Below, piece by piece: positions 6,011-17,603 of a stretch of 24,000 bases of DNA (position 1 is the stretch's first letter; every line of letters starts with the position of its first letter). The notes beneath the pieces were generated by a model. That model was not told where the DNA came from, made no database searches, and worked only from the letters and a program-made list of their open reading frames with translations. Origin of the DNA: an uncultured Chloroflexota bacterium (lineage in GTDB: Bacteria; Chloroflexota; UBA6077; CF-72); NCBI GenBank assembly GCA_964435115.1, contig CAYSYM010000005.1, positions 68,224 to 92,223 on the forward strand, in the 5' to 3' direction. The position numbers were made by a program, and so were the translations under genes.

Positions 6011-7219
6011 ATGCAGCTCCCAACGCCGTTCACCCTCGCGCGCCGCGTCGCCGTCGTCATCGCCGTGGCCGCGTTCGCCGCCGCGTGCGCGCCGGCCGCG
6101 CAGCCGACGCCGACCACGGCGCCGGCCAAGCCGACCGAGGCGCCCAAGCCCACCGTGGCGGCCTCGCCCGCCGCGGCGCCGAGCCCCAGCCCGGCCGCCA
6201 AGCCGGCCGCGGCCGCCAGCCCGGCCGCGGGGGCCCCGGGCCCCGTGGCGACCAAGCCCGCGCAGAACCCCACCGACAAGCTCAGCCTGGTCTACGGCAG
6301 CCCGGTGACCCCGCCCAGCCTGGTCCACATGCCGCCGTACATCGCCCAGGCGATGGGCTTCTTCGACGAAGTCGGCTTGAACGTGGAGATCAAGTCCTTT
6401 GAAGGCGGCGTCGGGGCGCTGCGCGGTGGCATCTCGGGCGGCCTGGACATCGTCGGCACCAGCTCCGACCCGCTCTTCGCCGCCATCCAGCAGGGCGCGC
6501 CGGTCAAGGCCATCGGCACCTACGCGCCCAAGCTGAGCGTCGTCATGATGGCCAGGCCGGACATCAAGACGCCCCAGGACCTGAAGGGTCGCAAGCTGGG
6601 CATCCAGGAAGTCGGGGGCTTCAACGACGTCATGTCGCGCCTGGTGCTGCAGAGCGCCGGGATCTCGCCCAACGACGTGCAGTTCGTCACCGTGGCGACC
6701 GCCAACCGGGTGTCCTCGATGGTCCAGGGCCAGACCGAGGCGACCGTGCTGCACGCCGACCAGTACTACGCCGCGCTGGCCGCCGACCCCAACTTCAACG
6801 TCATGGCCCGCCTGTGGGAGGTCGTGCCGGACTGGTGGTACTCGGCGTTCGTCGCGTCGGACGACGTCATCAAGAACAAGCGCGAAGCGTTGGTCCGCTT
6901 CATGACGGCGGTCGTCAAGGCGCAGCGCTTCATGTACACGAACCCCGAGGAGACGAAGCGCATCGCGGTCGAGGAGACGAAGCGCAAGCCGGACGAGATC
7001 GAGAAGGCCTACGCCGACCTGGTCCGGGGCGGCATCTGGAGCGTCAACGACGGCATGCCGCGCAACATGGTCGAGTACACCGTCCGCAAGGAGATCGAGG
7101 TCGGCATCGTCCGGCCGGACAACCCGCCGACCTACGAGCAGATCGTGGACAAGTCGATCATCGACGAGGCCGTCAGGCGCAACGGTGGCGCCTGGACGGG
7201 CGACCCGCGCTGGTACTAG
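6011..7219 (+). CDS. ABC transporter substrate-binding lipoprotein, NMT1/THI5-like (NitT/TauT family)
   Basis: AAGGAG lies 8 nt upstream of ATG 6011. Signal peptide with lipobox (FAAAC) is followed by a ~65-aa Pro/Ala/Thr tether. The NMT1-like domain follows (LSLVYGSPVTPPSLVHMPPYIAQAMGFFDEVGLNVEIKSFEGG...). Confidence 0.85.
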   Translation: MQLPTPFTLARRVAVVIAVAAFAAACAPAAQPTPTTAPAKPTEAPKPTVAASPAAAPSPSPAAKPAAAASPAAGAPGPVATKPAQNPTDKLSLVYGSPVTPPSLVHMPPYIAQAMGFFDEVGLNVEIKSFEGGVGALRGGISGGLDIVGTSSDPLFAAIQQGAPVKAIGTYAPKLSVVMMARPDIKTPQDLKGRKLGIQEVGGFNDVMSRLVLQSAGISPNDVQFVTVATANRVSSMVQGQTEATVLHADQYYAALAADPNFNVMARLWEVVPDWWYSAFVASDDVIKNKREALVRFMTAVVKAQRFMYTNPEETKRIAVEETKRKPDEIEKAYADLVRGGIWSVNDGMPRNMVEYTVRKEIEVGIVRPDNPPTYEQIVDKSIIDEAVRRNGGAWTGDPRWY

Positions 7220-7224
7220 CGCGG

Positions 7225-7266
7225 GTGTCAGGCGTCAGGTATCGGGTATCGGGTGTTGGGTGGTGG
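7225..7266 (+). repeat. tandem heptamer array A (6 degenerate GTGTCGG units, 42 bp)
   Basis: Read directly: GTGTCAG GCGTCAG GTATCGG GTATCGG GTGTTGG GTGGTGG. It starts 6 nt after the SBP stop and runs into GGAGGGG (7267-7273), which serves as SD for GTG 7283. Confidence 0.9.
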
Positions 7267-7282: not shown

Positions 7283-8161
7283 GTGGCGGGTGTGATCAAC
7301 GGTGACCGGCGGGTGTCGGCGGGCACGTCGCCCTCCGACACCCGGCCCCCGGCCCCTGGCGCCCAGCCCGGGCCGCCGCGGTTGGAGGCCGAGCCGAAGA
7401 TTCGCGTCGAGCGGGCGACACGGACCTTCGTAGACGGCGGGGTCGTCGCCTTCGAGGAGCTCGACCTCGACGTACGCCCCAATGAGACGCTGTGCATCGT
7501 CGGCCCGTCGGGCTGCGGGAAGACCACCCTGCTGCGCAGCCTGGCCGGACTCCTCCCGCTGACGGACGGGCGCGTGCTGCTGGATGGCAAGCCGGTCGCC
7601 AGCCCCACACCCAGCGTGGTGATGGTCTTCCAGCACTTCGGCCTGTTCCCCTGGAAGACGGTGTGGGAGAACGTGACCTACGGCCTGAAGCTGCGGGGCG
7701 TGCCACGCAGCGAGTGGCAGCCGCGAGTGGCCCCGTACCTGGAGCTGGTCGGCCTGGCCGGCTTCGAGGCCATGTACCCCTACCAGCTCTCGGGCGGCAT
7801 GCAGCAGCGCTGCGGCCTGGTGCGCGCCCTGGCGGTCAACCCGGACGTGCTCCTCATGGACGAGCCGTTTGCCGCGCTGGACGCGCAGACGCGCGAGCTG
7901 CTGCAGGAGGAGCTACTGCGCATCCTCGAGCGCGAGCGGAAGACGATGGTGTTCATCACCCACAGCATCGACGAGGCGATCATGCTGGGCGACCGGATCG
8001 TGGTGATGTCCGCGCGGCCGGGCCGAGTGCGCGAGCTGATCGAGGTCGGCCTGCCGCGGCCGCGGAACCTGGAAGCGGTCCGGGCGACCGGCCGCTACGC
8101 CGAGCTGCGGGTCCACATCTGGGAGGAGCTGCGGCCGCAAGCCGCGGCGGCGGTGAGGTGA
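7283..8161 (+). CDS. ABC transporter ATP-binding protein (NitT/TauT family)
   Basis: Walker A GPSGCGKTT, signature LSGGMQQR, Walker B LLMDEPF, H-loop ITHSIDE. GTG 7283 sits 9-11 nt after GGAGGGG. Alternatives are GTG 7253 (inside the repeat), GTG 7292 and TTG 7382. The first ~35 residues are Pro-rich and non-conserved. Confidence 0.85.
   Translation: MAGVINGDRRVSAGTSPSDTRPPAPGAQPGPPRLEAEPKIRVERATRTFVDGGVVAFEELDLDVRPNETLCIVGPSGCGKTTLLRSLAGLLPLTDGRVLLDGKPVASPTPSVVMVFQHFGLFPWKTVWENVTYGLKLRGVPRSEWQPRVAPYLELVGLAGFEAMYPYQLSGGMQQRCGLVRALAVNPDVLLMDEPFAALDAQTRELLQEELLRILERERKTMVFITHSIDEAIMLGDRIVVMSARPGRVRELIEVGLPRPRNLEAVRATGRYAELRVHIWEELRPQAAAAVR
7311..7343. repeat. 9-bp perfect inverted repeat built from the heptamer motif
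   Basis: GGGTGTCGG (7311-7319) and CCGACACCC (7335-7343) are separated by 15 nt, 45 nt downstream of array A, within the 5' end of the ATPase ORF as called. Confidence 0.8.
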
Positions 8162-13562: not shown

Positions 13563-14555
13563 ATGGCTGTCACTACCCCCACCCCTGCGGCTGTCGTGCA
13601 GCCGACTCCCGACGAGCTGCAGGAGGCACTGCGGCTCATGCTCACCATCCGCCGGTTCGACGAGCAGGCGCTGGCGCTGTACCGGGCGGGCGAGATGCGC
13701 GGGACCACCCACCCGTACATCGGCATGGAAGCGGTGGGCGTGGGCGTGGTGGCGGCCCTCCGTCCAGACGACTACGTCACGAGCACCCATCGCGGTCACG
13801 GCCACACCATCGCCAAGGGCGGCGACATCAGGAAGATGATGGCCGAGCTGCTGGGCAAGGCGACCGGCTACTCGGGCGGGAAAGGCGGCAGCATGCACGT
13901 AGCCGACATGGACAAGCACATGCTGGGCGCCAACGGCATCGTCGGCGGCGGCATGGGGTTGGCCACAGGCGCCGCGCTGACCGCCAGGCTCCAGGGCGCC
14001 GACTCGGTCGCCGTGTGCTTCTTCGGCGACGGCGCGCTCAACCAGGGCATCCTGCACGAGACGAGCAACCTGGCGGCGATCTGGAAGCTGCCGGTCCTGT
14101 TCGTGTGTGAGAACAACCAATACGCCATGTCCACCCGGGCCGAGTGGAGCATAGCCGGCGGCGATCCGGCCGGGCGGGCCGCGGCCTACGGGCTGCCGGG
14201 CGTCACGGTCGACGGCATGGACTTCTTTGCGGTCCACGAGGCTGCCCACCGGCTCGTCGAACGGGCGCGGCGCGGCGAGGGGCCAGCGTACCTGGTCTGT
14301 AACACCTACCGCTACTATGGCCACCACGCCGGCGACCCGCTGAACTACCGGGGGAAGGATGAGGTGGACCGCTGGCGCGAGCAGGACCCGATTGCACGCC
14401 TGCAGCGGGCGCTCATCGAGCGCGGGGTGCTCAGCGCCGGCGAGGCGGCCGAGCTGGAGCAGCGCGTCGCAGCCGAGGTCGAAGCGGCGGTCGCGTTTGC
14501 CAAGGCCAGCCCGGAGCCGACGGTCGACCAACTGATGACCGACATCTACGCGTAG
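13563..14555 (+). CDS. 2-oxoacid (pyruvate/acetoin-type) dehydrogenase E1 component, alpha subunit (TPP-dependent)
   Basis: GGAGG lies 10 nt upstream of the start. Motifs: HRGHGHTIAKG, GGKGGSMH, and the TPP-binding GDGALNQG...VCENNQYAMST. Confidence 0.9.
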   Translation: MAVTTPTPAAVVQPTPDELQEALRLMLTIRRFDEQALALYRAGEMRGTTHPYIGMEAVGVGVVAALRPDDYVTSTHRGHGHTIAKGGDIRKMMAELLGKATGYSGGKGGSMHVADMDKHMLGANGIVGGGMGLATGAALTARLQGADSVAVCFFGDGALNQGILHETSNLAAIWKLPVLFVCENNQYAMSTRAEWSIAGGDPAGRAAAYGLPGVTVDGMDFFAVHEAAHRLVERARRGEGPAYLVCNTYRYYGHHAGDPLNYRGKDEVDRWREQDPIARLQRALIERGVLSAGEAAELEQRVAAEVEAAVAFAKASPEPTVDQLMTDIYA

Positions 14556-14579
14556 GTGTCGGGTGTCGGGTGTCGGGTG
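14556..14579 (+). repeat. tandem heptamer array B (3 perfect GTGTCGG + GTG)
   Basis: Begins at the base immediately after the E1alpha stop TAG (14553-14555). Runs into GAGGAG (14579-14584), the SD of the four-helix-bundle gene. Confidence 0.95.
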
Positions 14580-14593
14580 AGGAGATGCAGACG

Positions 14594-15001
14594 ATGACGG
14601 CGATGGCTGGCTACCGAGAGCTCCGGGTCTGGCAGGCAGCGATGGACCTGGTGGAGGGCGTCTACCGGCACACGCAGACCTTCCCGAAGCAGGAGGTCTA
14701 CGGACTGGCCGCGCAGCTTCAGCGGGCGGCGGTTTCTATCCCGGCCAACGTCGCGGAAGGACACGTCCGCGACCACCTCAAGGAGTACTTGCGGCACATC
14801 TCGGTGGCGCAGGGCTCGCTGGCCGAGCTCGAGACACAGCTCGAGATCGCCCGGCGACTGGGCTACGTCGAGCGAGCCGCCCATCGAGAGCTCCTCGAGC
14901 AGACGGCTTCCATCGGCAAGCAGCTCTATGCGCTGCGCAACTCTCTCGGCAAGAAGCTCAACACTGAATCGACGGCGCACGTGGAGCCCTCATGGCCGTA
15001 G
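14594..15001 (+). CDS. four helix bundle protein (23S rRNA intervening-sequence protein / S23p family, TIGR02436-like)
   Basis: Family-typical sequence [18 protein letters not shown]...[27 protein letters not shown]...[18 protein letters not shown]. In-frame starts are GTG 14570 and ATG 14585/14594/14603. ATG 14594 has the best spacing (9 nt) from GAGGAG. Stop TAG 14999-15001 overlaps the E1beta ATG 14992. Confidence 0.85.
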
Positions 15002-16026
15002 CAACTGCCCCCGACGCCCGACACCCGACACCCGACACCCGACACCTGACCTACGCTGAGGCGCTGAACGAGGCGCTGCGCGAGGAGATGCGCCGCGATC
15101 CCACCGTCTTCGTCCTGGGCGAGGACGTGGCCATCTGGGGCGGCGGCGGCATCTTCGGCGTCACCAAGGGGCTGGTGGACGAGTTCGGCCCCGAGCGGGT
15201 GCGGGACACGCCCATCTCTGAGGAGGCGATCGCCGCGGTCGCCATCGGCGCGGCGGCGACCGGCAGTCGGCCGGTGGCGGAGATCATGTACGTGGACTTC
15301 ATCGGCCTGGCGATGGAGCCGATCGTCAACCAGGCCGCCAAGCTGCGCTACATGTTCGGCGGCAAGGCGAAGGTACCGATGGTGCTCCGCGCCCAGGAGG
15401 GCGCCGGCCGCGGCAACGCCGCCCAGCACAGCCAGAGCCTGGAGGCGTGGTTCTGCCACATCCCCGGCCTCAAGGTGGTCACGCCCAGCACCCCCTACGA
15501 CGCCAAGGGGCTGCTCAAGACCGCCGTCCGCGACGACAACCCGGTCATCTTCCTCGAGCACAAGGCGCTCTACTTCACCAAGGGGTCGGTGCCCACGGAG
15601 GAGTACACGCTCCCGCTCGGGCTGGCCGACGTGAAGCGCGAGGGCCGGCACGTCACCGTCGTCGGCGTCCACACCATGGTGGGCAAGGCGCTCCAGGCGG
15701 CCGAGCGGCTCGCCGCGGAGGGCATCGAGCTGGAGGTGATCGACCCGCGCTCCCTGGTGCCGCTGGACGAGGAGACGATTGTCAGCTCGGTCAGGAAGAC
15801 GGGCCGGCTGATCGTGAGCCACGAGGCGTACACGCGGGGCGGCTACGGCGGCGAGGTCATCGCCCGCGTCGTCGAGTCCGCCTTCGACTACCTGGACGCG
15901 CCGCCCGTGCGCGTGTGCGCCCGGGACGTGCCCGTGCCCTACAGTGCCGTACTGGAGACGGCGGCCCTGCCGCAGGTCGACGACCTCGTCGCCGCGGCCC
16001 GGGCGCTGGTGGGGAAGGAGCTGTAG
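14992..16026 (+). CDS. 2-oxoacid dehydrogenase E1 component, beta subunit
   Basis: Conserved body [28 protein letters not shown]... with transketolase-like pyrimidine-binding and C-terminal domains. The only canonical start upstream of the conserved region is ATG 14992 (GGAG 5 nt upstream). The first ~18 codons ([18 protein letters not shown]) are encoded by the cassette end and heptamer array C. Confidence 0.85.
15011..15052 (-). repeat. tandem heptamer array C (CCGACAC orientation on + strand; 6 units, 42 bp, 4 perfect)
   Basis: Read directly: CCGACGC CCGACAC CCGACAC CCGACAC CCGACAC CTGACCT. It is the inverse orientation of arrays A and B and lies inside the E1beta ORF, translated as [14 protein letters not shown]. 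Confidence 0.95.
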
Positions 16027-16031
16027 CGTCC

Positions 16032-17603
16032 ATGGCGACGCCGGTGACGATGCCGATGCTCGGGCTGACGATGGAGGAGGGCACGGTTGCGCAGTGGCTG
16101 AAGGGCGAGGGCGAGGCGGTGCGGAAGGACGAGCCGCTCCTCACCGTCGAGATCGACAAGGGCACGGTCGAGGTGCCCGCGCCGGCGAGCGGCGTGCTGC
16201 GGCGGATCGTCGTCCAGCCCGGCCAGACGGTGCCGATCAAGACGCTCATCGCGGAGATCGCCGCGCCCGGCGAGGCGGGTGAAGGGGCGCCCGCGGGCCC
16301 GGCGTCTGTTCTGCAGCAGACGGCTCCGGCCGGGGTGGCCCCGGCGCCAGCGGTCCCGCCCGACACCGGCGCTCCGCCGAGCCCGGCGCAGGTGGCCGCC
16401 GCCACGGTCGCCTCCGCCCCGCCAGCCGCCACCGTGGCCCCGACACCCGATACCCGATACCCGGCACCCGAGACCCGGCTGTTCGCGTCGCCGCGGGCGC
16501 GCGGGCGCGCCGGCGCGCTGGGGATCGAGCTGGCGCTGGTCCAGGGGACCGGCCCGCGCGGACGCATCGTCGAGGAGGATGTGCTCGCCTTCGCCCAGGC
16601 GGCCCCGGCTCAGCCAGTGGGCCAGAGCCTGACGGCACGATTGGGCGCAGGTGGGGCCCACTTGCCGAGCGCCCTCGGGAGTCAGCGCGTAGCGCCTGGC
16701 GCCGAGCCGTCGCGGGTCCCGGCGACGCCGCTCGCCCGACGGATGGCGCTGGAGCACGGGGTGGCGTTGAGCGCGGTCCAGGGCACCGGTCCGGGTGGGC
16801 GCGTCACCCACGAGGACGTGCTGCGCGCGGCTGAGGCGCGCCTGGCGGGCACGGGCGCCGAGGCGGGGGCCACGGCCCCTGCGCCGGCACCCGAGACCCT
16901 GCACCCGGTCCCTGTCGAGCCGCTCAGCCGCCTGCGGCGGATCACCGCCGAGCGCATGGCCGCCTCGGCGCGCAGCGTGGCCCGGGTCACGCTGTTCCTC
17001 GAGGCGGACCTGACCGAGGCGGCCCGGTTCCGGCGCCAGCTCGCCCCCGAGCTCGCGCGGCTCGGCGTGGCGAAGCTGCCGTGGGACGCGCTCTTCGCCA
17101 AGGCGGCCGGCCTGGCGCTGGCCGAGCACCCGGGCGTGAACGCCCAGTGGGTCGACGGCCAGGGGCTGCGCCGGCTCGCCACGGTCAACGTGGGGGTGGC
17201 GGTGGCGCTGGAGCCCGAGGGGCTCGTGGTGCCGGTGCTGCGCCAGGCCGACACGCGGTCGCTGCGCGAGCTGGCGGCTGACGTCCTGGCGCTGGCGGAC
17301 CGGGCGCGGCACAATCGCCTGCGCCCGGGCGAGATGCAGGGGGCGACCTTCACCATCACCAACCTCGGCCAGTACCGCGTCGACGGCTTCACGCCGATCG
17401 TGAATCCGCCTGAGACGGCCATCCTGGGGGTCGGGCGCATCGCCGACAAGCCTGCCGTCGTCGACGGCCAGCTCCAGGTCCGCACCCAGTGCACGCTGTC
17501 GCTCAGCTTCGACCACCGGGTCGTGGACGGCGCGCCCGCCGCCGCCTTCCTCGCGCGCCTGGCCGAGCTGCTCGAGCGGCCGTACGCGCTCCTGGGGCTC
17601 TGA
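16032..17603 (+). CDS. 2-oxoacid dehydrogenase E2 (dihydrolipoamide acyltransferase)
   Basis: ATG 16032 follows AAGGAG. Lipoyl domain with TVEIDKGTVEVPAP (Lys codon 16158-16160). Two peripheral-subunit-binding-like segments. Catalytic domain ends with SLSFDHRVVDGA. The 718-aa track ORF from 15447 is an upstream out-of-gene extension. Confidence 0.9.
   Translation: MATPVTMPMLGLTMEEGTVAQWLKGEGEAVRKDEPLLTVEIDKGTVEVPAPASGVLRRIVVQPGQTVPIKTLIAEIAAPGEAGEGAPAGPASVLQQTAPAGVAPAPAVPPDTGAPPSPAQVAAATVASAPPAATVAPTPDTRYPAPETRLFASPRARGRAGALGIELALVQGTGPRGRIVEEDVLAFAQAAPAQPVGQSLTARLGAGGAHLPSALGSQRVAPGAEPSRVPATPLARRMALEHGVALSAVQGTGPGGRVTHEDVLRAAEARLAGTGAEAGATAPAPAPETLHPVPVEPLSRLRRITAERMAASARSVARVTLFLEADLTEAARFRRQLAPELARLGVAKLPWDALFAKAAGLALAEHPGVNAQWVDGQGLRRLATVNVGVAVALEPEGLVVPVLRQADTRSLRELAADVLALADRARHNRLRPGEMQGATFTITNLGQYRVDGFTPIVNPPETAILGVGRIADKPAVVDGQLQVRTQCTLSLSFDHRVVDGAPAAAFLARLAELLERPYALLGL
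16440..16481 (-). repeat. tandem heptamer array D (CCGACAC orientation; 6 degenerate units, 42 bp) inside the E2 linker
   Basis: Read directly: CCGACAC CCGATAC CCGATAC CCGGCAC CCGAGAC CCGGCTG. It is in frame and translated as PTPDTRYPAPETRL. Confidence 0.9.

Follow-up and report, generated by a model that had tools for sequence, protein, structure and literature searches.

Here we describe a gene for a small four-helix-bundle (4HB) protein that sits at the junction of the E1 alpha and E1 beta genes of a 2-oxoacid dehydrogenase operon and is bracketed by inverted arrays of a 7-nt repeat. The locus lies in a 24,000-nt stretch of DNA (hereafter the window) from an uncultured Chloroflexota bacterium, whose metagenome-assembled genome (G000; 3.77 Mb, 71% GC, 90% complete) probably comes from mine drainage. 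The features of the junction are as follows.

13563..14555, + strand: gene for the E1 alpha subunit of the 2-oxoacid dehydrogenase (PF00676, E 6.4e-91), ending in the stop codon TAG at 14553-14555
14554..14579, + strand: left (5') arm, G-rich, AG(GTGTCGG)x3 GTG, part of a 26-nt perfect inverted repeat and also found by the tandem-repeat program TRF
14579..14584, + strand: Shine-Dalgarno-like GAGGAG for the 4HB gene, read from the sequence, 9 nt before ATG 14594
14585..15001, + strand: gene for the 4HB protein (PF05635 / TIGR02436; profile hidden Markov models and an AlphaFold 2 (AF2) model), within an open reading frame (ORF) of 14570-15001
14992..16026, + strand: gene for the E1 beta subunit (PF02779, PF02780)
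15010..15050, + strand: right (3') array, CCCGACG + (CCCGACA)x4, with the stem arm at 15022-15047 (inverted-repeat search, TRF)

The left array starts at the stop codon of E1 alpha, whose AG supplies the first pairs of the stem, and comparison of the junctions shows that the C-terminus of this protein (...LMTDIYA*) is kept in relatives. The arms at 14554-14579 and 15022-15047 form a perfect inverted repeat of 26 nt with 442 nt between them and, both being tandem, several slipped registers pair too. By TRF the left array (14555-14579) comprises 3.6 copies with 100% matches and the right one (15010-15050) 5.9 copies with 94% matches. The initial annotation of this DNA had reported (GTGTCGG)x3+GTG directly after the E1 alpha stop (14556-14579) and its exact reverse complement at 15022-15045, and both are read in the sequence as described; the perfect complementarity of its 24-bp arms holds, but their length does not, as the repeat is 26 nt and the right array is longer than was thought. 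A 14-mer of the repeat, with at most one mismatch allowed, has seven occurrences in the window, where 0.01 would be expected. When this geometry was placed at random 19,310 times in the genome, 0.026% of the placements gave an exact inverted repeat of at least 16 nt, and none gave one longer than 19 nt; with the threshold lowered to 12 nt, a bracketing repeat is met at random in 3.1%.

The arms have no flanking direct repeat and no visible target-site duplication, and between 14300 and 15300 no promoter-like or terminator-like site and no rRNA or other Rfam family scored above threshold. When the segment 14530-15075 is folded as RNA (minimum free energy (MFE) -265.8 kcal/mol, z -5.24), the arrays form the helix that closes the structure, in the MFE prediction and in the centroid alike, in line with the duplex that the initial annotation had envisaged. 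Three runs of the probable source sample gave contigs that cover the array-gene-array unit without differences, and no deletion or copy-number variant of the element was seen in them; these runs are not independent of the assembly.

The element had been thought to be wedged exactly between E1 alpha and E1 beta and to carry the 4HB reading frame only, and neither statement stands. The loop also contains the conserved start of E1 beta, ATGGCCGTAGC (MAVA...), whose ATG at 14992 begins an overlap of 10 nt with the 4HB stop codon region (ATGGCCGTAG); the same start motif is common to the relatives' loci L038, L041, L043, L049 and L052. Because this start lies upstream in the loop, the right array is itself E1 beta coding sequence and specifies residues ~7-18, within an N-terminal extension that leads directly into a conserved stretch. 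As the extension measures 18 amino acids (aa) here and 20-21 aa in relatives, the array has replaced variable E1 beta sequence and has added no length.

Translation of the 4HB gene likely begins at ATG 14594 or ATG 14585, and its stop codon, TAG at 14999-15001, falls within E1 beta codons 3-4; its neighbours are E1 alpha, E1 beta and E2. The product scores 122.1 bits against PF05635 (cut-off 33.8) and 119 bits against TIGR02436 (cut-off 24). Its AF2 model shows four helices (pLDDT 95.9) and superposes on the solved family members 2gsc (TM 0.91; phmmer E 1.4e-28) and 2rld (TM 0.86), PDB entries with five chains each. More distantly the model resembles Avd, a protein of diversity-generating retroelements (DGRs), with TM ~0.8 to 4dwl and 8ub7 at 11% identity. 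An assignment as a DGR Avd was rejected: the protein reaches 32 bits with the equivalog model NF033474 (cut-off 80) and 32 with PF22296 (cut-off 40). No reverse transcriptase (RT) gene and no template/variable repeat (TR/VR) pair adjoins the 4HB gene, the 90%-complete genome has no match to RVT_1 (PF00078) or to the transposase RAYT (Y1_Tnp, PF01797), either of which might have offered another source for the arrays, and the defence-system models of PADLOC gave no match. A gene for RNase III is encoded in the genome. The family as a whole was counted in 12,681 of 36,145 genera (~35%) and in 110 phyla.

The history of the site was read from E1 beta loci of 29 relatives of the same family, order and class, 28 of which have a readable E1 alpha-E1 beta junction; an unpublished genome (G038) adds one gene-negative junction only (L043). 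In a tblastn search with the 4HB protein none of the 29 loci matched, the sole match being the window's own locus. The gene is missing from 28 of 28 readable junctions, so the empty orthologous sites that the initial annotation had suggested looking for do exist, and no further copy was found in the order's 39 genomes in the collection searched. Spacers between the two genes in relatives are 8-207 nt long. At 26 of the 28 junctions heptamer arrays and 4HB gene are both absent, the exceptions being G005, which has arrays, and G030, which has a hairpin. The nearest homologue (59% identity) lies in G005 at another site, and PF05635 genes are patchy in the order, with 0-5 per genome and presence in 22 of 41 genomes. 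The 4HB gene entered the E1 alpha-E1 beta spacer in this lineage only.

In G005, which belongs to another genus, the junction (L035, G005:C254) reads TAG followed by GTGTTGG GTGATGG GTCATGG GTGTTGG, a 53-nt loop with a start codon and CCCAACA x3, without a 4HB gene, and a new E1 beta start (MTTTADPTPNTQHP...) lies inside the loop. None of the 8 other sampled genomes of that genus has a match to the GGGTRTY array, and their readable junctions (7 of 7) lack arrays. The arrays at the G005 junction may have been gained there independently, or they may be a remnant. Short-loop hairpins of differing sequences were also seen in this spacer in other families of the order (L042, L043, L048 and L049, from G030, G038, G019 and G034, respectively); the arms of the hairpin in G030 (L042) are 7-8-nt repeats, e.g., GTAGTGC.../...GCACTAC.

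Bracketing of this kind extends far beyond the present locus. An order-level set comprised the 27 PF05635 genes of the host genome and 40 relatives, and a cross-phylum set of 80 loci drawn with the family profile gave 73 evaluable genes from Chloroflexota, Acidobacteriota, Pseudomonadota, Planctomycetota, Bacteroidota, Cyanobacteriota, Bacillota and Archaea, with windows shifted by 1500 nt in the same loci serving as controls. An exact bracketing inverted repeat of at least 12 nt was found at 15 of 27 genes in the order-level set (9 of 27 at a threshold of at least 16 nt). Across phyla the same thresholds were reached by 48 of 73 genes against 1 of 137 shifted windows, and by 23 of 73 against 0 of 137, with arms of up to 73 nt. 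Inspection by eye of the order-level set revealed heptamer arrays on one or both sides of nearly all PF05635 genes, in a unit specific to each gene (AGGCGAG, CGAGTAG, CAGTCGA, GTCAGCT, GTGATGR, GGTTAGT and others). Annotated records of isolates show the same arrangement: the 4HB gene on plasmid pNPUN02 of Nostoc punctiforme is bracketed by (GTCAGGA)n/(TCCTGAC)n and that of Calothrix brevissima by (GGGTGTA)n/(TACACCC)n, and an isolate of Pseudoxanthomonas wuyuanensis has a bracketed 4HB gene too. Carriers of the family that can be cultured include N. punctiforme PCC 73102, P. wuyuanensis CGMCC 1.10978 and Bacteroides thetaiotaomicron. The suggestion that other PF05635 genes would be flanked by such arrays is thus borne out for the second gene of the host genome and for most genes in relatives and other phyla. 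Bracketing by inverted heptamer arrays is the architecture of most PF05635 genes across bacterial phyla.

These loci share further traits. The 5' arm is rich in G (41%) and poor in C (14%), with most units of the form [A/C/T]G[G/T]NNNN; at 70 of 83 loci the 4HB gene has the orientation of its upstream neighbour, and its domain starts at a median of 71 nt past the upstream stop codon. The idea that the heptamers serve as three-frame stop signals for the upstream gene was dropped, stop trinucleotides being present in 43% of 5'-arm units and expected in 42%.

Arrays of the window's type are also dispersed through the host genome. With an exact 17-mer pattern, GGGTRTY-type arrays occupy 35 distinct loci, and many more by looser criteria. 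Judged among tandem-repeat periods that are not multiples of 3, period 7 dominates, with 27 arrays of TRF score at least 50 against 0-4 for each of the periods 5, 8, 10, 11 and 13. Close pairs of arrays (<150 nt apart) have the G-rich array first and the C-rich one second in 28 cases and the reverse order in 1, and the paired arrays form hairpins or brackets placed right after a stop codon and right before the ribosome-binding site of the next gene. Bracketed junctions include ilvB-ilvN and that between an ABC binding protein and its permease. The recurrence of the unit at ~35 dispersed loci, many of which bracket ordinary intergenic regions, and the presence of arrays without the gene at the G005 junction contradict the earlier picture of the arrays as private termini of a cassette. 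No 4HB remnants were recognised in the loops of empty brackets examined on contigs C22 and C3 of the host genome. At an ABC binding protein-permease junction (L261, G000:C7:64300-64520), outer arrays GGGTATC.../...CCCGACA surround an inner AGGACTG.../...CAGTCCT hairpin, and in relatives (L073, L074) the same kind of junction holds a 4HB gene.

Solo pairs in P. wuyuanensis have uniform arms, CGGGACC(GGGGACC)3 ... (GGTCCCC)3GGTCCCG, around loops of 50-110 nt that are mutually non-homologous and resemble native spacers. The C-rich arm mostly ends at the GGAG-ATG of the next gene, and at argG, as at E1 beta here, the loop takes in the start codon with the codons next to it, and the arm is translated. 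Since the loops are non-homologous and spacer-like, the arrays behave as brackets around existing sequence and not as a transposon with a fixed body. Several (GGGGACC)n brackets of this species (L180-L188) contain an inner repeat pair, GAAGAGCAAGAGC ... GCTTTTGCCTTTCC, which suggests a stacking of different bracket families.

The window itself contains two further arrays of this family.

16439..16477, + strand: third array, in C-rich orientation, 5.6 degenerate units, inside E2 (TRF, pattern match, E2 domains)
7220..7264, + strand: G-rich array of ~7 units (GGGTGTC AGGCGTC AGGTATC GGGTATC GGGTGTT ...), directly after the stop codon TAG 7217-7219 (TRF)

The array in E2 (CCCGACA CCCGATA CCCGATA CCCGGCA CCCGAGA) encodes part of the linker from the lipoyl to the E3-binding domain (PTPDTRYPAPETR) and could also pair with the left arm at 14554-14579. 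The array at 7220-7264 has a weak C-rich partner near 7333-7345 and is another bracket of the same family.

Gene and arrays are coupled at the level of whole genomes. The GGGTRTY arm unit has 67 matches in the host genome and 26 in G005, the two genomes found to have a 4HB gene bearing GGGTRTY arms, while each of 39 relatives, eight congeners of G005 among them, has 0-4. The same held for the units of other bracketed genes: AGGCGAG has 77 matches in G014 and at most 8 in the other genomes searched, CAGTCGA 393 in G013 (at most 1 elsewhere), GGGAGTC 156 in Phormidium sp. FACHB-1136 (at most 9) and GGGGACC 123 in P. wuyuanensis (0). In 5 of 5 units tested, the arm unit is therefore the private dispersed array family of the genome that carries the gene.

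Co-occurrence was assessed by TRF on samples picked regardless of arrays, counting period-7 arrays with a score of at least 36. None was found in 663 kb sampled from seven relatives without PF05635 genes, namely G016 (186 kb), G017 (115 kb), G039 (60 kb) and the G005 congeners G003, G004, G007 and G001 (301 kb together). Arrays are frequent in three of the four sampled relatives that carry such genes, with 14 in 43 kb of G013 (3 genes), 16 in 77 kb of G030 (5 genes) and 6 in 79 kb of G005 (4 genes); the host genome, with 2 genes, has 101 in 3.77 Mb. Unit similarity tracks 4HB protein clades across phyla: for protein pairs with at least 55% identity the mean unit distance is 2.83 against ~3.26, the observed value being reached in 0 of 1000 permutations. 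Such unit clades include AGGATTN (Planctomycetota, Betaproteobacteria and Chitinophaga), AGGGGCT and the window's own GGGTNNN.

The second 4HB gene of the host genome is flanked by AT-rich AGGAAAT/AGAAAAT arrays that are found nowhere else in this genome of 71% GC and therefore came with the gene. This gene and its arrays (~C3:126540-127060; L031, G000:C3:125203-128517) lie inside the ORF of a DUF1156 DNA methyltransferase, whose frame has 0 stop codons across the 483 inserted bases, where the two alternative frames have 6 and 7; the six TAGs of the arrays all lie out of this frame. In relatives the DUF1156 gene is uninterrupted and lacks residues 249-409. Translation of the methyltransferase may run straight through the element; the alternative is that the element is somehow removed. 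The closest relative of this second 4HB gene, in another family of the order (L078, G024:C40:65677-68988), lies ~1.8 kb downstream of a DUF1156 methyltransferase gene and has a complete small hairpin on each side (GAGAAGT.../...TCCTCAC); 4HB genes of this lineage seem to move together with the DUF1156 locus.

We read the element at the E1 alpha-E1 beta junction as a protein-coding member of a genome-specific heptamer-array family, of the type of rRNA intervening sequences (IVSs) and of the short tandemly repeated repetitive (STRR) sequences, and standing to the dispersed arrays in a relation like that between REPINs, which are hairpin-forming repeats, and RAYT; we give this reading a probability of about 0.6. 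Gene and arrays would then make up a two-part system comparable to RAYT plus REPINs. We infer that the Avd-like, probably pentameric and nucleic-acid-binding 4HB protein could act in trans on heptamer arrays, keeping or spreading them, and that slippage and hairpin template-switching would keep the arms homogeneous and complementary. The G-arm-first order, the near-perfect complementarity of the arms and the length-neutral replacement in E1 beta suggest two possible origins of the brackets, one by tandem slippage with intramolecular template switching at quasi-palindromes and the other by templated addition of one repeat strand from both sides.

Being co-oriented with the operon and without a promoter-like site of its own, the 4HB gene is presumably transcribed with it, and the paired arms in the transcript could form a long duplex that RNase III might cut, as in rRNA IVSs, or that might stabilise the upstream message. 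At typical brackets, cleavage would split the transcript between cistrons, shortly before the next ribosome-binding site; alternatively, the stem would shield the message upstream of it. At the present locus the E1 beta start lies in the loop, so that E1 beta must be made from RNA that has not been cut, probably through coupling to termination of the 4HB gene (termination-reinitiation at the overlap).

Several points weigh against this reading. A cut by RNase III in the stem would part the E1 beta start codon from the body of the gene, and the mismatches in 75 stems (22 G:T, 15 A:C) show no significant excess of the G:U-compatible kind, so that selection on a sense-strand RNA duplex is not demonstrated. 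To our knowledge no PF05635 protein has an established biochemical activity, and no catalytic motif can be recognised in the family. Units evolve fast, with a mean distance of 2 of 7 positions even at protein identities of at least 70%, which argues against tight sequence-specific recognition. As to the coupling, G014 has 4 PF05635 genes and no period-7 array in 41 kb, the relatives compared are kin, so that the co-occurrence counts overstate independence, and the host array families AGGACTG and CAGATGG have no cognate 4HB gene in the 90%-complete assembly. A few (AGCTGAC)n matches in G007, which is 92% complete and has no PF05635 match, may be an exception to the coupling; this unit was met as a reversed control pattern and has matches in G005, G030, G024, G021 and G010 as well. 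Finally, the arrays far outnumber the 4HB genes.

This last point is also what one would expect if the arrays were host repeats of the REP (repetitive extragenic palindromic) or STRR type with an origin of their own and a role in mRNA stability or processing, and the 4HB gene an unrelated mobile gene that lands in the loops of existing array hairpins. In that case the match between the arm unit and the genome-wide unit is trivial. The explanation gains from G005, where G- and C-arrays stand at the same junction with the E1 beta start in the loop and no 4HB gene, from the fact that most brackets in the host genome and in P. wuyuanensis enclose non-homologous, native-like intergenic sequence and not gene remnants, and from rRNA IVSs, which are likewise located at hairpin tips. 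If genes and arrays were independent, however, the complete lack of arrays in the 663 kb from seven PF05635-free genomes, four of them congeners of an array-rich species, would be unexpected. The AT-rich arrays of the second 4HB gene, which occur nowhere else, cannot stem from a pre-existing host family, and unit similarity follows the 4HB protein clade across phyla. We regard this explanation as unlikely, while taking it as the main rival to a REPIN-RAYT-like relation.

A regulatory device specific to this locus would account for the strongly predicted RNA stem, which might process or stabilise the operon mRNA and set the E1 alpha:E1 beta:E2 ratio, the 4HB gene being a passenger unlinked to the arrays. 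STRR hairpins in operons have been proposed to stabilise transcripts or couple translation (PMC2670836), and some brackets in the host genome do stand at classic junctions of differential expression, such as ilvB-ilvN and ABC binding protein-permease. The 26 of 28 readable junctions without gene and heptamer arrays indicate, however, that the dehydrogenase complex does not need such a device; the right arm lies inside E1 beta coding sequence, and 4HB genes are similarly arranged in unrelated contexts in many phyla. A device of this kind is accordingly improbable.

An origin resembling that of retroelements, in which an Avd-like protein and a reverse transcriptase write the heptamer arrays by templated, telomerase-like or DGR-like cDNA synthesis, seems very improbable to us. 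It would fit the fold and the remote sequence similarity to DGR Avd, the constant 5' position of the G-rich arm (28 G>C against 1 C>G close pairs), as expected from addition of a repeat strand to 3' ends on both sides, and the replacement of E1 beta sequence by the right array without added length. Against it stand the lack of an RVT_1 match in the 90%-complete genome, an Avd equivalog score of 32 bits with a cut-off of 80, and the lack of a TR/VR pair or a nearby RT gene. Chance or an assembly artefact, which the metagenomic source and a break of one run's contigs at the array might suggest, can be set aside, as shuffles and random placements exclude chance, the three run assemblies that span the whole element argue against misassembly, and closed isolate genomes show an identical architecture.

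On the reading that we prefer, the locus ties together PF05635 proteins, STRR arrays and rRNA intervening sequences. Within the reach of our literature search, three observations are new: the residence of such an element in a protein-coding operon with an arm inside coding sequence, the family-wide bracketing of PF05635 genes by inverted heptamer arrays, and the coupling of PF05635 gene and arrays at the genome level. As PF05635 ranks among the most common small protein families that still lack an explanation, with two crystal structures and a presence in ~35% of genera, the implications are broad. If the link is causal, it would represent a new gene-repeat partnership comparable to RAYT-REPIN that shapes operon spacers, mRNA structure and even coding sequence; arrays are translated within E1 beta and E2, and the reading frame of the methyltransferase gene runs through an entire element. 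We tentatively propose, at somewhat less than even odds, that PF05635 proteins are the trans-acting part of a very widespread, hitherto unrecognised class of repeat elements and maintain or disseminate inverted heptamer arrays around intergenic regions, such that STRRs, ORF-bearing 23S rRNA IVSs and the present element would have one origin. This would be a RAYT-REPIN-like system with a non-transposase, Avd-like protein, and possibly a new way of writing DNA or RNA repeats.

The ORF-bearing IVS and the STRR hairpin are already known as kinds of element. The protein family was first found inside 23S rRNA intervening sequences, and ORF-bearing IVSs of this kind are known from Leptospira and Coxiella. 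In the 23S rRNA IVS of Coxiella burnetii, three tandem GACAGAT units and one degenerate unit precede the S23p ORF, the number of heptamers differs between strains, and the termini form a 28-bp stem inside which, according to RACE (rapid amplification of cDNA ends), RNase III cuts at the first repeat (PMC4990558). Our element resembles these IVSs in its PF05635 protein (S23p in Coxiella), in the terminal inverted repeats that close the ORF with a stem of ~26-28 bp and, as regards Coxiella, in the tandem heptamers at the 5' end directly before the ORF, and calling it IVS-like was justified on these grounds (PMC4990558). It differs in lying in a protein-coding operon and not in an rRNA helix (9, 25 or 45), in having whole heptamer arrays as both arms, one of them translated in the downstream gene, in the dispersal of its arm unit at ~35 other loci, and in the harm that RNase III cleavage would do to E1 beta. 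The initial annotation's statement that no heptamer-terminated element with this gene had been described is right except for the Coxiella IVS, described once (PMC4990558).

The likeness to DGR Avd lies in the four-helix-bundle fold (TM ~0.8) and in sub-threshold profile matches, whereas the Avd cut-off is not reached and a reverse transcriptase and a template/variable repeat pair are lacking. Correia elements of Neisseria and the REP and BIME (bacterial interspersed mosaic element) repeats are dispersed intergenic inverted repeats co-transcribed with operons, whose hairpins are cut by RNase III or protect the upstream mRNA. Unlike miniature inverted-repeat transposable elements (MITEs) such as the Correia element, the brackets described here have no fixed body, no target-site duplication and no conserved loop, their loops being non-homologous between loci.

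Heptanucleotide STRR arrays have been used for decades in the fingerprinting of cyanobacteria. In filamentous cyanobacteria, STRRs are dispersed intergenic 7-bp tandem units that form hairpins between operon genes such as hupS-hupL, for which stabilisation of transcripts or coupling of translation has been proposed (PMC2670836). Our arrays agree with STRRs in being dispersed, intergenic, tandem 7-bp units that often form inverted hairpin pairs, and arrays of just this kind enclose the 4HB genes found on plasmids of Nostoc and Calothrix; the host here differs in being a non-cyanobacterial organism of 71% GC from mine drainage. The Atlas clusters nearest to its E1 beta come mostly from Acidobacteriota, which gives no more than a lead. 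We found no literature that links STRRs or heptamer arrays generally to PF05635 genes, in a search that left subscription journals mostly outside, so that an earlier description is possible.

The closest parallel to the gene-repeat relation is the REPIN-RAYT system, in which inverted copies of a short repeat surround a protein gene and further copies are scattered through intergenic regions of the genome in question (PMC3116915). The two systems differ in the protein, here a 4HB of ~120-140 aa without HUH/Y1 transposase motifs, in the repeats, here tandem 7-nt arrays of variable length and not a fixed palindrome, and in the brackets, which here often enclose native intergenic sequence and are not a compact doublet. 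They are alike in that a gene present in one or few copies is flanked by inverted copies of a genome-specific dispersed repeat, as seen here and in four other genomes, and in that, in the genomes sampled, the repeat family was found only where the gene is present.

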